The notes beneath the pieces were generated by a model. The model saw only the letters and a program-made list of their open reading frames with translations, did no database searches and was not told the origin of the DNA. Below, piece after piece: positions 25,580 to 36,250 of a stretch of DNA of 64,000 nt (position 1 is its first letter; every line of letters starts with the position of its first letter). The position numbers and the translations under genes were made by a program. The stretch is from Candidatus Bathyarchaeota archaeon (GTDB lineage Archaea > Thermoproteota > Bathyarchaeia > Bathyarchaeales > Bathycorpusculaceae). The stretch lies in NCBI GenBank assembly GCA_963815095.1, contig CAWFFH010000003.1, positions 672,001 to 736,000 on the forward strand, written 5' to 3'.

Positions 25580-26123
25580 CCAAAATCTGTGCGTTCTGAG
25601 GCGGCAACGAAGCCACATCATCCGCCACAAATGGACCATACGATTTCATATCTGCGCCCATGATAGCTGGAATCCCTTTTATGAAACGAATCGTTGATCG
25701 TTTATGAGTTGGGGCTACCTCGGATTTAATTTCAACTTTAGCTGCAACTCTGACTGATTCGGCTATTTGGCCTTGCATGAGATTTTCCGAAAACTTTTGA
25801 TAAGTTTTCGTAAACTCGGCAAAGCTTTCGCACATTCTGGCTTCTTCAATCGTAAGCAATTCAGTCGGCAGCTTTTGGCTCTTGGTAACCGTTTTGATGA
25901 TTTTTCTGTACCTTGCCCCAAGCAGTTCCTTAAGCATCCGCTCAACATTAACCGATTCATGAAAAAGCAAATTCATCTTAACCGATTTTTTATCGAGTAC
26001 CTTGTCTTCTTCTTTAATGCGTCGCAGGTACTCTGCTATTTTAGCATAGAAGTCTAGCGGCAAACCTCCAAGCGTAGGGTCATCAATTTCTCTTTGCCAC
26101 GCCGCGTAAAGTTCATTGTACAC
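25542..26123 (-). CDS. GINS subunit Gins51 (Gins15)
   Basis: LPLDFY...RYRKII...LTIEE A domain and a C-terminal B domain GADMKSYGPF...ILVKQG. Directly downstream of priS. Confidence 0.88.
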   Translation of the reverse strand: MYNELYAAWQREIDDPTLGGLPLDFYAKIAEYLRRIKEEDKVLDKKSVKMNLLFHESVNVERMLKELLGARYRKIIKTVTKSQKLPTELLTIEEARMCESFAEFTKTYQKFSENLMQGQIAESVRVAAKVEIKSEVAPTHKRSTIRFIKGIPAIMGADMKSYGPFVADDVASLPPQNAQILVKQGLAVLVEVS

Positions 26124-27370
26124 TACTTTGCCACCTCAGCTCTTCTCTTACAGATAAGCATAACCGCCGCAGCAACCGGCAACTCAACATTCTGGTTCTT
26201 ATATGGACCCAACGTTTCCCCACTCAACCTAAACTCAGGAGCATCAAACACCAACACTTTAGCTGTGCCCTTTTTAAAAGCTACTGCTGCACTAAAAGGG
26301 TCAAAATCATTTAGGTCTTTCGCGGGGAACTCGATTTTTTTTAAGCCCGTTTTGCCATGTAAGGTTCCATTCATTCTGATTAGGCGGTGGATATCGGTTG
26401 TGACCACAGTGTCAATCTTTGAAGATTGGATTTCTCTAACATAATCAGCTAGTTTTAACCACGTTTGATCTTTCACGCCGTTGATGCTTTCCCACTTGCC
26501 TTCGGCGATGGCGCGTTTAATGATTGTATCTTTGTTATCTAGAAGCGCCTTGTTATTTAGACCGATAGCTTTCAGGTCTTCTTTATTGGAGTTTAAAAGC
26601 AGATTTTGCATTCCCACCTTTAGGCGTCTATTCCAACCGAAATTATGTAAGCTAAATTTTTTGACTGGAGTTTTTTTTCCGCCTCTCCCGCGTTTCTCCT
26701 GTGCTTCTTTATCGAGAACACTTATTCCCAACCCAGTAACATAATCGACGATTTCTTTTCTCGCCATAGCATCTAGCGATCGTACAACTTCGCTCTCGAT
26801 ATGTACATGGTATCCGCGGTGTCCAGAAAAATAAACGTGTAATTCATCTTGGGAAAAACCAAAATCGTTCTCCAACATGTCAAGCAGCTTGGCGGTTTCG
26901 TCGCGGGCTGATTGAATGCATAAATCGCATGCCCAAATTTTGGTATCAAACTTTGTCGTTTCACAGCAGGGACAAACTTCTGGAGTGATTCCTCTTCCTT
27001 CAAAACCGCATTTTGCGCATCTGAATTCGTCGTGGATTTTGTTGCATGTTGTAGGGATGTGGTCTGCATCTATGTCGAAGACCAGATCAGAGCCTATCCA
27101 GCCTTTTTTGTCCATGTCAAAATCTGGGTTTTCATAATATGCGCAGGAATGGTAGACATCTGAAGGAATAGTTTCGGCAAGGGTTGCTTTCAGGTTTTTG
27201 AATTCTGCAAATCTACGGTGTCTAACCATGAATCGTTCTTTGAACATGAGATAGCCGAATTCTCGTTGCTCAGGTAAAAAGACTGCAGGAATAACTGTTG
27301 AGGGGTCTTGGTAGTATTCGGTGAATTTTTGGTAAACGAATTCTCGAGAAGCCTCCATGCTAACCCCCAA
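26123..27370 (-). CDS. priS: DNA primase small (catalytic) subunit
   Basis: REFG, LVFDIDAD, FSGHRGYH and IDTVVTTDIHRLIR. Confidence 0.96.
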   Translation of the reverse strand: MGVSMEASREFVYQKFTEYYQDPSTVIPAVFLPEQREFGYLMFKERFMVRHRRFAEFKNLKATLAETIPSDVYHSCAYYENPDFDMDKKGWIGSDLVFDIDADHIPTTCNKIHDEFRCAKCGFEGRGITPEVCPCCETTKFDTKIWACDLCIQSARDETAKLLDMLENDFGFSQDELHVYFSGHRGYHVHIESEVVRSLDAMARKEIVDYVTGLGISVLDKEAQEKRGRGGKKTPVKKFSLHNFGWNRRLKVGMQNLLLNSNKEDLKAIGLNNKALLDNKDTIIKRAIAEGKWESINGVKDQTWLKLADYVREIQSSKIDTVVTTDIHRLIRMNGTLHGKTGLKKIEFPAKDLNDFDPFSAAVAFKKGTAKVLVFDAPEFRLSGETLGPYKNQNVELPVAAAVMLICKRRAEVAK

Positions 27371-29987: not shown

Positions 29988-31013
29988 TCATTCCGCCTTA
30001 CTTTTCTGCTCAGTTTTTCTTTTGTAGTATTTTAGTGGATGATAGATTCTTCGGCATAAGTCATCTTTGTTCTTGCATACGCCATGGGTCTGAAGAACTG
30101 AACACTGAGGGCAAGTGTACTTTGTTCCGGACCCGCGCTCTCCAGCGATATGCTCGATTTGGTAGCGTGTTAGGCGTTCATTATAGTCGGAGAAGGTTTT
30201 GAACATATCATTCAAACCTTCAGGGGTCATTCCTATGTTTATCATGAACGAAGTTAAAGTGAAACGTCCGATGTGGCTTAGATGGTGGGCTTGAGATGCA
30301 TCTTCGTAGAGGGCGTTTATACATGGGGGGAAAGCTCCTTGAACGACAACTTTGGGCATTTCCTCAATTTCCTGTCCCATGATCGTCTGCGCCAGCTTGG
30401 TTAATTCTTCGGCTATTTCGGATATCTCTTGAGGAAGGTTTTTGATTTCTGAAACATCAAGTCTTTTTTCCACTCGATTCTTCACTTCTTCCTGAAGCAG
30501 CCGAACTGCCTTATCCTTATTTAAATAGACTATTCCTTTGTCTATAATTTGGTTAATCAGCTTCCACTCCGATCCATGCATGTGAGCAGCATTCTTCAAG
30601 TAGAAACTAAACCCTAAACCAAAATCCTTGCCCACCATGCCTTCACAAATATCCCAGTCAAAGTCTTGGGCAATAGCAAAAATCTTTTCTTTATTTTCTC
30701 CAAGCAACTGTGAATGCGCCGTTTTTGCAACAGCCAATGCGTATCTTTTTTTTATCCACGAATTTTTAGTTGCAATAACCAGAATAAGTGCCGCCGCAAA
30801 AGAAGAGATTTCTGCTCTTCTGTCCCTCACTGCCTCTCCTGTGTTCACTTCCAAGATTGCTTTTTCCACACGGTTTTGGGCGCGGTCAAAAACGGGTTTC
30901 TCAGAAGCTAAGCTTCCGATTGTGAATTGTAGTTGTTCTATCTGTTTGGAGGCTTGTTTTAGAAATGGGTATTTGGCAAAATCTTCAGAAGATAATGCCG
31001 ATTCCATTTGCAA
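29988..31013 (-). CDS. priL: DNA primase large subunit
   Basis: AKYPFL, FPPCI, HIGRF, YQIEHIAG and C-terminal Fe-S cysteines with HPLKYY. Confidence 0.94.
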   Translation of the reverse strand: MQMESALSSEDFAKYPFLKQASKQIEQLQFTIGSLASEKPVFDRAQNRVEKAILEVNTGEAVRDRRAEISSFAAALILVIATKNSWIKKRYALAVAKTAHSQLLGENKEKIFAIAQDFDWDICEGMVGKDFGLGFSFYLKNAAHMHGSEWKLINQIIDKGIVYLNKDKAVRLLQEEVKNRVEKRLDVSEIKNLPQEISEIAEELTKLAQTIMGQEIEEMPKVVVQGAFPPCINALYEDASQAHHLSHIGRFTLTSFMINIGMTPEGLNDMFKTFSDYNERLTRYQIEHIAGERGSGTKYTCPQCSVLQTHGVCKNKDDLCRRIYHPLKYYKRKTEQKSKAE

Positions 31014-31020
31014 CTTGGTC

Positions 31021-31776
31021 TTACTCTGTTTCGATTCTTGGCGCCAAGAAGAAGGTTAACTTTCCCTCTTTTGTTTGTTGGAAGTCAATTCTCACAGGCA
31101 TGTCGCTTGAGAATTCGAGAGTTGCAATATCTGAGGTTGCCGATGCTGCTTTTATGATTTCGGAGAGGTAGCTTAGGCTGAATGTTGCTTTGGCGTTCTC
31201 TTTAACTTCCAAATCCAGCAATGCGTCGTTGCCTTTTTGGAGGGTGATGGTTGCTCCCATTAAGTCGCCTGAAGCGCTTAGGGTTAATTTTTCTGGTTCT
31301 GCCTCGATTCGAACGTGGTCGCTGACTAGTTGGGCGTCTTCGATTGCTTGGCTTAAGCCTTGGGTTGTGGTTTTGGCTTTAACATTGAAGCTGATTTTTG
31401 GTGTTGGGACTTCTTCTTCGGAGGCTTCAAGCGTTGGCATCGTAAAGTTACGGCTGTACTTTCCCATTATAGTTACGAGTAATTTTCCAGTTTTTTCGTC
31501 AAGAGACAGCTCGACGGATTCGTCTTTCCCTGCTCGTTTGAGAAGTTTGAGAAGCTCGCTTATATTGAGGCAGATTTTTGATGGCTCAGTGGATATGAAT
31601 TCTTGGAAGATGGTTTTGGGCCATTCAAAATCAATCATGGCGACGCGTGAGGGGTCCATGGCTCGAAGTTTTAAGCCTTCAGCGTCAATTTTGAAGGTTG
31701 CTTCGTCAACTAGAATTGAGATGGCAGTTGCCATATCTCTTAGGAGTTTAGCGTCAGACACTTTAAGCTTGAACAT
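31021..31776 (-). CDS. pcn: DNA sliding clamp PCNA
   Basis: RAMDPSRVAMID, FSLSYL and FFLAPR. Start moved to the ATG at 31776, which follows GAGG. Confidence 0.97.
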   Translation of the reverse strand: MFKLKVSDAKLLRDMATAISILVDEATFKIDAEGLKLRAMDPSRVAMIDFEWPKTIFQEFISTEPSKICLNISELLKLLKRAGKDESVELSLDEKTGKLLVTIMGKYSRNFTMPTLEASEEEVPTPKISFNVKAKTTTQGLSQAIEDAQLVSDHVRIEAEPEKLTLSASGDLMGATITLQKGNDALLDLEVKENAKATFSLSYLSEIIKAASATSDIATLEFSSDMPVRIDFQQTKEGKLTFFLAPRIETE

Positions 31777-32017
31777 TTTCCTCTCTTCCTCGCTATATGC
31801 ATACAGGTAATATGCTAACATTACAGTCTGAGTTAATAAATTTGTTCTAGTGGAACCCACAAATATTTACTTAAAGATTGGGAACGTAATGTGGTTGTTT
31901 TGTATTGAAGGGGCTTAAGTTTTTTCTAAGTAACATTGTTAGTAGCCTTTGTTTTTGCTTGATAAGTCATAAAGTATAAGAATGTGTATGTTTCTTTTAT
32001 GCGGGCTGGTCGATACC

Positions 32018-32293
32018 GTGAACGTTCCAAAAGAAGTAAAGACTTACTGTCCAAAATGTAAAGTTCATCGAACTCACAGTGTAACTCTCTACAAGCCGGG
32101 AAAACGCAGAGCCTTAGCAAGAGGCGAACGCCACCATGAACGTGAAAAAGAGGGTTACGGTGGACAAAAATATCCACTGCAACATGAATTCGCAAAAACC
32201 ACTAAAAAACAAACTTTGCGCTTAAAATGCAAAGTTTGTAATTACATGCGTCACAAAGACGGTATCCGACTACGAAAACTAGCCATAGTATAA
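32018..32293 (+). CDS. rpl44e: 50S ribosomal protein L44e
   Basis: TYCPKC, GYGGQ and KTTKK..L.LKCKVC. GTG start at 32018. Confidence 0.96.
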   Translation: MNVPKEVKTYCPKCKVHRTHSVTLYKPGKRRALARGERHHEREKEGYGGQKYPLQHEFAKTTKKQTLRLKCKVCNYMRHKDGIRLRKLAIV

Positions 32294-32314: not shown

Positions 32315-32512
32315 ATGTCTGAATGGAATAAACTTATCCCGAAACCGCGAAGCGTCTTCCTGCGGGTTAAATGCCAAAAATGCGGTAATGAGCAACTCAT
32401 CTTCAGCAACGCAGTTAACAAAATAGTTTGCAATGTCTGCGGCGAAGTGTTGGCTGAACCCAGAGGCGGAAGAGCAAAAATTAACGGTGACGTCCAAGCA
32501 GTTCTCGAGTAA
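32315..32512 (+). CDS. rps27e: 30S ribosomal protein S27e
   Basis: PRSVFLRVKCQKCGNEQLIF...CNVCG...PRGG. Confidence 0.96.
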   Translation: MSEWNKLIPKPRSVFLRVKCQKCGNEQLIFSNAVNKIVCNVCGEVLAEPRGGRAKINGDVQAVLE

Positions 32513-32527
32513 GAAATGAACAGCAAA

Positions 32528-32584
32528 ATGGCTGAGCGTAAGCTAAAAGGCTGGCAGCTTAGCTTTTCTAGAAGGGACGACTAA
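32528..32584 (+). pseudogene. Probable internally deleted remnant of aIF-2 alpha (mini-ORF MAERKLKGWQLSFSRRDD)
   Basis: Occupies the conserved aIF2-alpha slot between S27e and Nop10. Its stop (32582-32584) directly abuts the Nop10 start. The identity is inferred from synteny and remembered termini. Confidence 0.55.
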
Positions 32585-32755
32585 TTGGTTTGGCAACTCC
32601 GCAAATGCGTTAAATGCGAAAAATATACTTTAAACAAAACTAGTTGCCCCTACTGTGGAGGATCAGTCAGAATCCCACATCCAGCCAAATTTTCTCCAGA
32701 CGATAAATACCTAAAGTATCGAATGGCTATGAAAAGGAGCGCAGAAGCAGAATGA
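32585..32755 (+). CDS. nop10: H/ACA RNP protein Nop10 (not in ORF track)
   Basis: Hand translation from TTG: MVWQLRKCVKCEKYTLNKTSCPYCGGSVRIPHPAKFSPDDKYLKYR... Has the HPAKFSPDD signature and an ATGA overlap with the next gene. Confidence 0.95.
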   Translation: MVWQLRKCVKCEKYTLNKTSCPYCGGSVRIPHPAKFSPDDKYLKYRMAMKRSAEAE

Positions 32756-33522
32756 AGGAAACCTATATCAAAGAATTTGCTGAAATCCACCCTAACAACC
32801 CTATCCTTATCGAAGGTCTGCCTGGCTTAGGACTCGTGGGCAAAATTGCGCTCCGCTACCTAATCAAACAGCTAAAAGCCAAAAAAATTGCTTATCTCTA
32901 TTCACCCCACTTTCCATACTTCGTCTTAGTTAACAAAAAGGGTAATGTGCGTTTGCTTAGAGGGGCATTCTATTATTACCAAAACCCCAAAGGAAACGAC
33001 ATCATCCTCTTTACAGGCGATAGCCAAAGCCAAACCATCGAAGGACAATATGAAATCGCGGACAGACTGCTTGACTTCTCGGAAAAACATGGCGTTAAAA
33101 CAATCGCAACTATTGGTGGCTACCGCATGGAACCCAAAGAGAAACCCAAAGTCTTCATAGCAGCAACTTCCCAAGATGTTTTAAACAGGGCGTTGCAAGG
33201 CGGCGCAACATTAAGCACCTCTGGAAGTCCAATCGTTGGTACTGCAGGCCTTATTCTTGGCTTAGCAAAATTCAAAAAAATCGATGCCCTCTGCCTACTT
33301 GGCGAAACACGCGGTTATCTACCTGATCCACTTGCAGCCAAAAGCGTTTTAGAAGTATTAGTGTCAACGTTCAACTTTGACTTGGACCTCACAGGCTTAA
33401 ATGAAGAAATTGCTAAAGCAGAAACAATGGTTACTCGATTACAGCAAATCGAAGAAAAACGCGCTGTACAAGCGGAAGAAAGTAAGAAACAGGAAGACAA
33501 GAAAACAACCTACATTTCTTAA
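32752..33522 (+). CDS. PAC2-family proteasome assembly chaperone
   Basis: IEGLPGLGLVGK, IVGTAGL and CLLGETRGYLPDP. Usual neighbour of nop10. Confidence 0.92.
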   Translation: MKETYIKEFAEIHPNNPILIEGLPGLGLVGKIALRYLIKQLKAKKIAYLYSPHFPYFVLVNKKGNVRLLRGAFYYYQNPKGNDIILFTGDSQSQTIEGQYEIADRLLDFSEKHGVKTIATIGGYRMEPKEKPKVFIAATSQDVLNRALQGGATLSTSGSPIVGTAGLILGLAKFKKIDALCLLGETRGYLPDPLAAKSVLEVLVSTFNFDLDLTGLNEEIAKAETMVTRLQQIEEKRAVQAEESKKQEDKKTTYIS

Positions 33523-35671: not shown

Positions 35672-36250
35672 TTACTTTTCTCCAGCATTCTCTAAAATTC
35701 TAGTTTTCCATTCAGAAATGATTTTGACAAGTTGTTCATAGACAAGTCTTTCTTCGCTTGTGAATTTTTTCAGAACTTGATCGCTTTGGGCTGGCGCAGC
35801 AGATATAGCAACTATCTTCTTTAATCGTGAATTCACGATGTCGCGTGCTAATTGCCTTGCGCGATCATATTCTTGGAATTTAATTGAGTCAGGCTGTTTT
35901 GAGGTTTGATCTTTGAGATCCCCAATGAATCTGCGGAGTTTTGGGTAAAAATCGCCTGGCAACTCTGAAATTTGCCCGGGAATTTGTACGCCTTCTTTCC
36001 ATTGCACCTGAAACAATTTAGTTGCGTCAAGCGTTTCGCCTTCCCGAAAATGCACCATACCTGCGGCAGCGAGTTGTTTTGCTACCCAAAAATAAATTTC
36101 ATATTCGTTGCCTTCATCGAAGGGGCCCACAGTTAAGCCTGCAAGCTTGATTTCTGGGCAGTTGCGGTTGGCTACGATTTTAACTAGGGAGTTTTCATAG
36201 CAAAAGTCCAAAGTGCATATTTTCGCTGCCAAATCCCTATTCCCTCTCAA
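35672..36250 (-). CDS. GINS subunit Gins23
   Basis: B domain first (GPF...WVAKQL), then LPGDFY...RLKKI. Immediately upstream of mcm. Confidence 0.85.
   Translation of the reverse strand: MRGNRDLAAKICTLDFCYENSLVKIVANRNCPEIKLAGLTVGPFDEGNEYEIYFWVAKQLAAAGMVHFREGETLDATKLFQVQWKEGVQIPGQISELPGDFYPKLRRFIGDLKDQTSKQPDSIKFQEYDRARQLARDIVNSRLKKIVAISAAPAQSDQVLKKFTSEERLVYEQLVKIISEWKTRILENAGEK

Follow-up and report, generated by a model that had tools for sequence, protein, structure and literature searches.

The locus

This work deals with a gap in one of the most conserved gene clusters of the Archaea. The LSIN cluster (L44E-S27E-aIF2 alpha-Nop10) brings together the genes for two ribosomal proteins, for the alpha subunit of the translation initiation factor aIF2 and for Nop10, and it lies beside the genes for PCNA, PriS and Gins15 (Berthon et al. 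2008, PMC2643942). That study places L44e-S27e-aIF2alpha-Nop10 among the most conserved archaeal gene orders and describes the meaning of this order as unknown. The stretch we analysed, called the window from here on, comprises 64,000 nucleotides (nt) of a Bathyarchaeia genome (G000:C3:672001-736000); window positions count from its first letter.

Genes at the locus were identified from a list of open reading frames (ORFs) together with Pfam profile matches (Table 1). L44e, S27e and Nop10 are neighbours and are read in the same direction, a PAC2/COG2047-type gene takes its place in the published order, and PCNA, the primase subunits and a GINS gene are near. The difference lies in the slot between S27e and Nop10, which holds 72 nt in place of an aIF2-alpha gene. 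A preliminary description of this DNA had listed these neighbours as all present except aIF2-alpha, and the ORFs and profile matches bear that out. It had also pointed to a mini-ORF in the gap, and this too is as described: it runs from an ATG at 32528 through 18 codons, reads MAERKLKGWQLSFSRRDD, and its stop abuts the TTG with which Nop10 starts. What had been missed is an in-frame ATG at 32516, 3 nt past the S27e stop, which would lengthen the mini-ORF to 22 codons.

Table 1. Genes and sequence features at and around the S27e-Nop10 interval, in window positions.
Feature	Position	Strand	Basis or remark
DNA primase small subunit (PriS) gene	26123-27370	-	Pfam DNA_primase_S 1.4e-19
DNA primase large subunit (PriL) gene	29988-31013	-	Pfam DNA_primase_lrg 2.1e-31
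PCNA gene	31021-31860	-	Pfam PCNA_N and PCNA_C
L44e ribosomal protein gene	31982-32293	+	Pfam Ribosomal_L44 7.4e-25; the real start is possibly a later codon
S27e ribosomal protein gene	32315-32512	+	Pfam Ribosomal_S27e 3.9e-21; stop TAA 32510-32512
Scar of 72 nt, remnant of the ancestral operon aIF2-alpha gene	32513-32584	+	Two-piece alignment to relatives' full-length genes; graded remnant series
Putative relay mini-ORF	32516-32584	+	22 codons from ATG 32516 or 18 from the ancestral ATG 32528; stop TAA 32582-32584
5' remnant	32528-32543	+	Ancestral codons 1-5 (MAERK) and one base
Inverted repeat of 7 bp with 12-nt loop	32540-32565	+	AAGCTAA 32540-32546, TTAGCTT 32559-32565
3' remnant	32544-32584	+	Ancestral codons about 249-261 and stop, with small indels
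AGAAGGGA	32570-32577	+	Contains AGAAGG, Shine-Dalgarno-like, one mismatch to AGGAGG; ends 9 nt before the TTG
Nop10 gene, TTG start	32585-32755	+	Pfam Nop10p 1.4e-23; TTG 32585-32587; own stop overlaps the PAC2 start (ATGA)
PAC2-family gene	32752-33522	+	Pfam PAC2 3.9e-45
GINS subunit gene	35672-36250	-	Pfam PSF2_N and Sld5

The gap as a gene remnant

Homology shows the gap to be the leftover of an aIF2-alpha gene that once stood between S27e and Nop10. The same interval was taken from related genomes and aligned, and their slots hold either the operon gene or a remnant of it. When the scar in the window is aligned in two pieces to the full-length operon genes of relatives, its ends match the two ends of the gene, and about 727 nt of the ancestral gene are gone from the slot. 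With 18-22 codons left, about 5 of them N-terminal and 13 C-terminal, the scar falls outside the aIF2-alpha family, whether this is recognised by the S1 and EIF_2_alpha domains or by the model NF003064. The preliminary description had suspected both ends of aIF2-alpha in the gap and had read a trace of the C-terminus in a different frame, KAGSLAF. We agree on both counts: once small indels are allowed for, KAGSLAF is the counterpart of the ancestral terminus ...KAGGQG(T/S)FRREK.

The termini of the scar also tell which gene it comes from. As will be seen below, many of these genomes carry a second, displaced aIF2-alpha gene away from the cluster. The first 16 nt of the scar have 0-2 mismatches to 13 operon aIF2-alpha genes of the genus, 4-8 mismatches to 16 displaced copies, and 6-10 to 13 genes of other genera. 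The motif AGAAGGGA near the end of the scar is found in the last 25 nt of 13/13 operon copies, 0/16 displaced copies and 0/13 outgroups. The termini are of the operon type and not of the displaced type, and therefore the scar descends from the operon gene and not from the distant copy.

A gene remnant is recognised by homology to the ancestral gene at the same locus and by intermediates in relatives, and the intermediates are there as well. Our survey covers 120 species genomes of this Bathyarchaeia genus, 54 of which have a full-length gene in the slot and 66 a remnant. The length of the interval was measured in 82 genomes; it contains a gene of 798-815 nt in 16 of them and only 62-303 nt in the other 66, and the series of sizes is unbroken. 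All 66 remnants have a ATGGCTGAGCGTAAGC-like 5' start, and at the 3' end TTTTAGAAGGGA, a few bases and then a stop directly before the Nop10 start. They retain about 1 to 69 N-terminal and about 6 to 50 C-terminal codons by two-piece alignment. The clade of 25 genomes in which a tree of flanking genes places the window has remnants of 144, 123, 83-84, 73-75 and 65-66 nt, and from these graded lengths it follows that the scar shrank stepwise. The single precise internal deletion that had been proposed does not survive this comparison, since close relatives in the clade hold 144-, 123-, 84- and 65-nt versions.

In two genomes (G086 and G088) the operon slot is ~803 nt long and the aIF2-alpha frame is broken several times, which is either an early pseudogene stage or the result of assembly indel errors. 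At the operon loci of three more (G022, G015 and G113), S27e, L44e or Nop10 appear as split tblastn matches, that is, with frameshifts. These are probably assembly indel errors and call for caution with the frame counts given below.

Two copies of aIF2-alpha

The preliminary description held that aIF2-alpha might be missing from the genome altogether, and it kept a simple relocation in reserve. Neither idea fits what we find. A search with PF07541 through the whole 2.69-Mb genome (98.45% complete) gives one EIF_2_alpha match, at C3:979387-979713 and free of stops. The ORF around it (G000:C3:979027-979815) shares its contig with the scar, from which it is ~274 kb away in the downstream direction. 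It has 262 residues from its likely start (MSEHK...) and contains both an S1 (9.7e-12) and an EIF_2_alpha (6e-27) domain. Against the NCBIfam equivalog NF003064 it scores 271.3 bits, where the cut-off is 252, with residues 8-262 of 263 covered. This is the displaced copy, and as the sole aIF2-alpha here it presumably serves in the normal aIF2 heterotrimer.

The displaced copy is better described as an old diverged paralog than as a relocated gene, since it coexists with the operon copy in part of the genus. An EIF_2_alpha match is present in 113/120 genomes of the survey and Nop10 in 120/120. When copies are assigned to a type by their adjacency to Nop10, 59/120 genomes have the displaced copy only, 29/120 have both copies and 25/120 the operon copy only. 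Neither copy was found in the remaining 7/120, which are 52-88% complete and all have a remnant in the slot. Among relatives from other genera, 15 have an EIF_2_alpha match; none of these 15 has a second copy, and aIF2-alpha adjoins Nop10 in 14 of them, as read from coordinates. One genome of another genus in the same order (G040, C1:73662-85537) has aIF2-alpha and Nop10 11 kb apart on opposite strands and has no second copy. It is a separate breakage of the LSIN cluster that took place without a second aIF2-alpha.

Displaced and operon copies are 60-69% identical. A maximum-likelihood tree of 42 proteins separates all copies of the genus, as one clade (100/100), from 13 other-genus sequences. 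The clade of the displaced copies (100/99) sits on a long stem of 0.26, and the operon copies are grouped at 76/79. We considered whether the displaced copy had been acquired from a distant lineage and rejected this, since all copies of the genus stand together against the other genera. Seven Nop10-adjacent genes (L115, L116, L121, L123, L127-L129) are 72-76% identical to the displaced copy of the window, which exceeds the 60-69% of other operon copies.

A tree of four flanking genes (121 rows) requires at least 11 changes in the state of the slot and also at least 11 in the presence of the displaced copy; both counts are rough, since only four genes and a single long-branched outgroup underlie them. 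Its two earliest branches carry both copies. Median pairwise ratios of nonsynonymous to synonymous substitution (dN/dS) for the displaced copy are 0.056 in genomes where it is the sole copy and 0.116 in genomes with two copies, and for operon copies they are 0.086-0.098, all to be read with the caution that the underlying dS values are above 1 and near saturation. The low ratios mean that all aIF2-alpha copies are constrained, the sole displaced copy most.

These data suggest the following history. The aIF2-alpha gene would have been duplicated before the genus radiated, giving rise to a diverged second copy. That copy can be observed in these genomes today, and by taking over the function it would have made the operon copy dispensable. 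The operon copy would then have been lost many times, through internal deletions that shrank it stepwise. We are very nearly certain that the gap is a remnant and that an old displaced paralog made the operon copy dispensable.

The remnant as a proposed translational relay

Why the remnants have not disappeared is a separate question, and we believe the answer lies in the gene downstream. The mini-ORF and Nop10 have the geometry of a coupled gene pair, which is co-directional with stop and start overlapping or a few nt apart. The distance from stop to start is 0 nt in 46/66 remnants, and the number rises to 53/66 when overlaps and gaps of up to 2 nt are counted. A separate count finds an ATG-started ORF that ends at most 2 nt from the Nop10 start in 54/66. 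The preliminary description had suggested that coupling to nop10 was preserved, and the retention of this stop-abuts-start geometry in most relatives fits that suggestion well.

The reading frame is kept along with the geometry. Of the 66 remnants, 53 can still be read in the ancestral frame from where the gene once started through to its former stop at Nop10, and 50 of the 53 have a start codon there as well. If the remnants are sorted into 21 similarity classes, 15 are mostly in frame compared with the one third expected, a binomial tail of 4e-4 that has to be read with the caution that the deletion classes are not strictly independent events. This frame-keeping supports selection for a nop10 relay. 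No internal stop interrupts the open remnants, which reach up to 94 codons. The remnant peptides vary freely in the middle, so the peptide sequence is not what is kept.

Nop10 begins with TTG in 69/82 genomes (read from the start-codon column), including most of those with a full gene upstream. The columns of AGAAGGGA show the majority base in 65-81 of 82 genomes. The 3' end of the 16S rRNA, whose gene was found with an Rfam model, reads ...GGATCACCTCCT, the complement of which gives AGGAGG. The AGAAGG in the scar would be the Shine-Dalgarno site for nop10.

In the mechanism we propose, ribosomes would begin the mini-ORF at its ancestral ATG (32528) or at the in-frame ATG just past S27e (32516). 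On reaching the ancestral stop, which adjoins the weak TTG of nop10, they would terminate and be handed over to nop10 by termination-reinitiation, a step in which the conserved Shine-Dalgarno-like AGAAGG 9 nt before the TTG would assist. If nop10 depends on a supply of upstream ribosomes, the termination-reinitiation model leads one to expect the pattern seen in the remnants. We think it fairly probable that the remnant persists as such a relay, not free to vanish or to shift frame, and we regard the full account, which combines a fossil gene, takeover by a paralog and a relay to nop10, as likely.

Beyond the cautions already attached to the change counts, the dN/dS medians and the deletion classes, several points weigh against this account. 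Thirteen of the 66 remnants are out of frame, nine of them ending in a TAG that lies 12-13 nt short of Nop10; it follows that nop10 can do without strict coupling. The ancestral ATG is gone from seven remnants. Compensation at the start codon is not evident, Nop10 having ATG in 1/13 out-of-frame compared with 4/53 in-frame remnants. Some assemblies carry indel errors. We infer from sequence both the translation of the mini-ORF and the dependence of Nop10 on it, and what points to a role of the displaced copy in aIF2 is family membership and sequence constraint. A quick tree of 110 rows puts the seven Nop10-adjacent copies with 72-76% identity beside the displaced-copy clade, and transfer within the group or gene conversion is possible for them; in an approximately unbiased (AU) test, a single clade of all 20 operon-slot copies was not rejected (p = 0.57).

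The alternative to be taken most seriously is neutral decay of the remnant as a pseudogene. The ends of the remnant would survive only as the ribosome-binding region of nop10 and as sequence adjacent to the S27e stop, and the mini-ORF would be untranslated or irrelevant. The varying middle and the spread of lengths from 62 to 303 nt are what one would expect under such decay, as are the out-of-frame remnants and those without the old ATG, and AGAAGG 9 nt before the TTG could permit de novo initiation. This explanation has difficulty with the frame being kept in so many remnants and classes, and with the absence of internal stops from remnants as long as 94 codons. It also has difficulty with the old ATG and the first 16 nt, which have been kept even though they could be removed without touching S27e, whose stop lies 15 nt upstream. 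We consider neutral decay unlikely.

Less probable alternatives

The gap contains an inverted repeat, AAGCTAA/TTAGCTT, which the preliminary description located correctly, and one may ask whether this repeat is a regulatory hairpin or whether a functional micropeptide is made from the mini-ORF. In favour of these ideas, all 12 scars of this type have the ORF open, and in 10/12 the repeat pairs fully. The peptide sequences differ freely between scar classes. The hairpin is limited to one class and is absent from other scar types; within its class there are two wobble variants and two disruptions but no compensatory change. An inverted repeat of at least 7 bp arises in 246/5000 shuffles of the 72-mer, and the 96-nt region folds no better than shuffles (z = 0.11). 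We therefore regard a micropeptide or a regulatory hairpin as very improbable. The repeat is probably incidental, and the hairpin as a functional element is unsupported. A regulatory leader peptide or attenuator was also considered and rejected: the peptides vary freely, the hairpin is confined to one class and its stability is no greater than that of shuffles.

An error of assembly, in which the organism has the gene in its slot and the assembly has dropped it, can be set aside almost entirely. It would gain something from probable consensus errors elsewhere in this genome (two 1-nt insertions in aIF2-beta, discussed below). The same 73-75-nt scar type, however, occurs in eleven other genome assemblies, and remnants occur in 66 in all. 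In the public run X3 a 185-nt contig covers 32456-32640; it differs from the window by 5 substitutions and shows no indel. The public runs were used as DNA contigs, of which only short, low-depth ones matched the window, so that the covered parts are the informative ones and the uncovered parts are uninformative. Finally, when compared with the ancestral ends, the scar shows substitutions and small indels peculiar to it. The collapse at this point that the preliminary description wished to see excluded is contradicted both by the X3 contig, which crosses the gap, and by the eleven assemblies.

The idea that the organism lacks aIF2-alpha and initiates through an alpha-less aIF2 or by some other route is practically refuted. 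In its favour, the operon slot is empty and the aIF2-alpha gene of Haloferax volcanii can be deleted at the price of a severe growth defect (PMC3828320). Against it, an intact gene scoring above the equivalog cut-off lies on the same contig, its dN/dS is low where it is the sole copy, and an EIF_2_alpha match is present in every one of the 73 genus genomes with completeness of at least 90% and contamination of at most 5%. Because of this intact copy, alpha-less aIF2 is not the case here. Compensating changes in the other factors had also been suggested as something to look for. The genes for aIF2-gamma and aIF5B are both single and intact.

The gene for aIF2-beta is single too and lies outside the window (G000:C1:101152-101565). 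Two 1-nt insertions, near C1:101181 and C1:101303, break its frame twice in this assembly only. The gene has no stop in all 36 other relatives with a match. The four closest relatives show a transition difference at each insertion site, where both bases stand in tandem in this assembly. We take the insertions for a probable consensus artefact due to strain mixture and not for real damage to the gene. None of the public runs contains more than 0.19 of the words sampled from the aIF2-beta locus.

Comparison with known systems

The mechanism we propose is termination-reinitiation of the ordinary kind. What is unusual is the upstream ORF, which is the fossil of a lost gene of an essential type. 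Reporter work found strict coupling in 13/14 overlapping gene pairs (Huber et al. 2019, PMC6728339). A later study (2023, PMC10666635) reports that coupling is nearly abolished by a gap of ~20 nt and needs no more of the upstream gene than its final 15 nt. The pair in the window resembles these systems in having co-directional ORFs, 0 nt from stop to start and a Shine-Dalgarno-like motif inside the 3' end of the upstream ORF, and it also resembles them in that a short upstream ORF would be enough. It differs in that the upstream ORF is a gene fossil of 18-22 codons, that the downstream start is TTG, and that the coupled pair is predicted here from sequence.

Duplicated initiation factor subunits have been described before. 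In Haloferax volcanii the genes for aIF1A and aIF2 beta are duplicated and partly redundant, and the single aIF2-alpha gene can be deleted at severe cost to growth (Gabel et al. 2013, PMC3828320). The likeness is that two copies of one initiation factor subunit occur in a single archaeal genome. The differences are that here it is alpha that is duplicated, that the copies are 60-69% identical, and that in 59/120 genomes the newer-looking copy alone is left.

The differential or reciprocal loss of duplicates, also spoken of as paralog displacement, is a general concept, and our case resembles it in that an old pair has been resolved lineage by lineage to the operon copy only, to the displaced copy only, or to both. 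What sets it apart is that the lost copy comes from one of the most conserved archaeal clusters and that its loss appears to have left a selectively constrained remnant. We found no published aIF2-alpha paralog from the Bathyarchaeia and no published gene remnant kept for coupling in the part of the literature consulted, which excludes supplements; the additional files of Berthon et al. may list exceptions to the LSIN order.

It is worth considering what these observations mean for the cluster itself. Throughout a whole genus, aIF2-alpha has left it again and again where a paralog was at hand, and this speaks against any strict requirement that the factor be encoded together with its neighbours. 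The dozens of independent or nested deletions, most of which keep frame, start and stop, amount to a natural replicate experiment on coupling, and their frame-keeping suggests that the TTG-started nop10 depends on translation from upstream. The 29 genomes with two copies, both under purifying selection, offer a test case for alternative subunits of a core factor. Surveys of gene content should also take note that an empty LSIN slot is not to be taken for the absence of the factor.

A conserved ORF beside the displaced copy

A conserved ORF of about 110-125 amino acids, which we call orf124, follows the displaced aIF2-alpha of this genome after 11 nt (G000:C3:979827-980201, L190:9828-10202). 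It is directly 3' of the displaced copy in 63/95 loci examined, and it is present in 67/120 genomes of the genus, nearly always adjoining that copy. An alignment of 11 sequences has 38 invariant columns. Searches with orf124 gave no Pfam match, no NCBIfam match, and no match to the sequence of a solved structure below E = 0.2. Its position suggests that it may be a dedicated partner of the displaced aIF2-alpha.

A bolder version of our account can be entertained only tentatively. The two aIF2-alpha proteins, the displaced one with orf124 as its own partner, might have existed since before the radiation of the genus and might give two forms of the factor that differ in role. The alternative form might then have taken over all initiation in at least 11 lineages, with the fossil ORF kept open by selection each time as an obligatory relay to nop10.

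One further genome (G091) has two near-identical copies of the displaced aIF2-alpha with orf124, on two contigs (G091:C8:27162-27930 and G091:C9:18731-19499). The contamination of this genome is 6%, and the double copy is likely a strain duplication in the bin.

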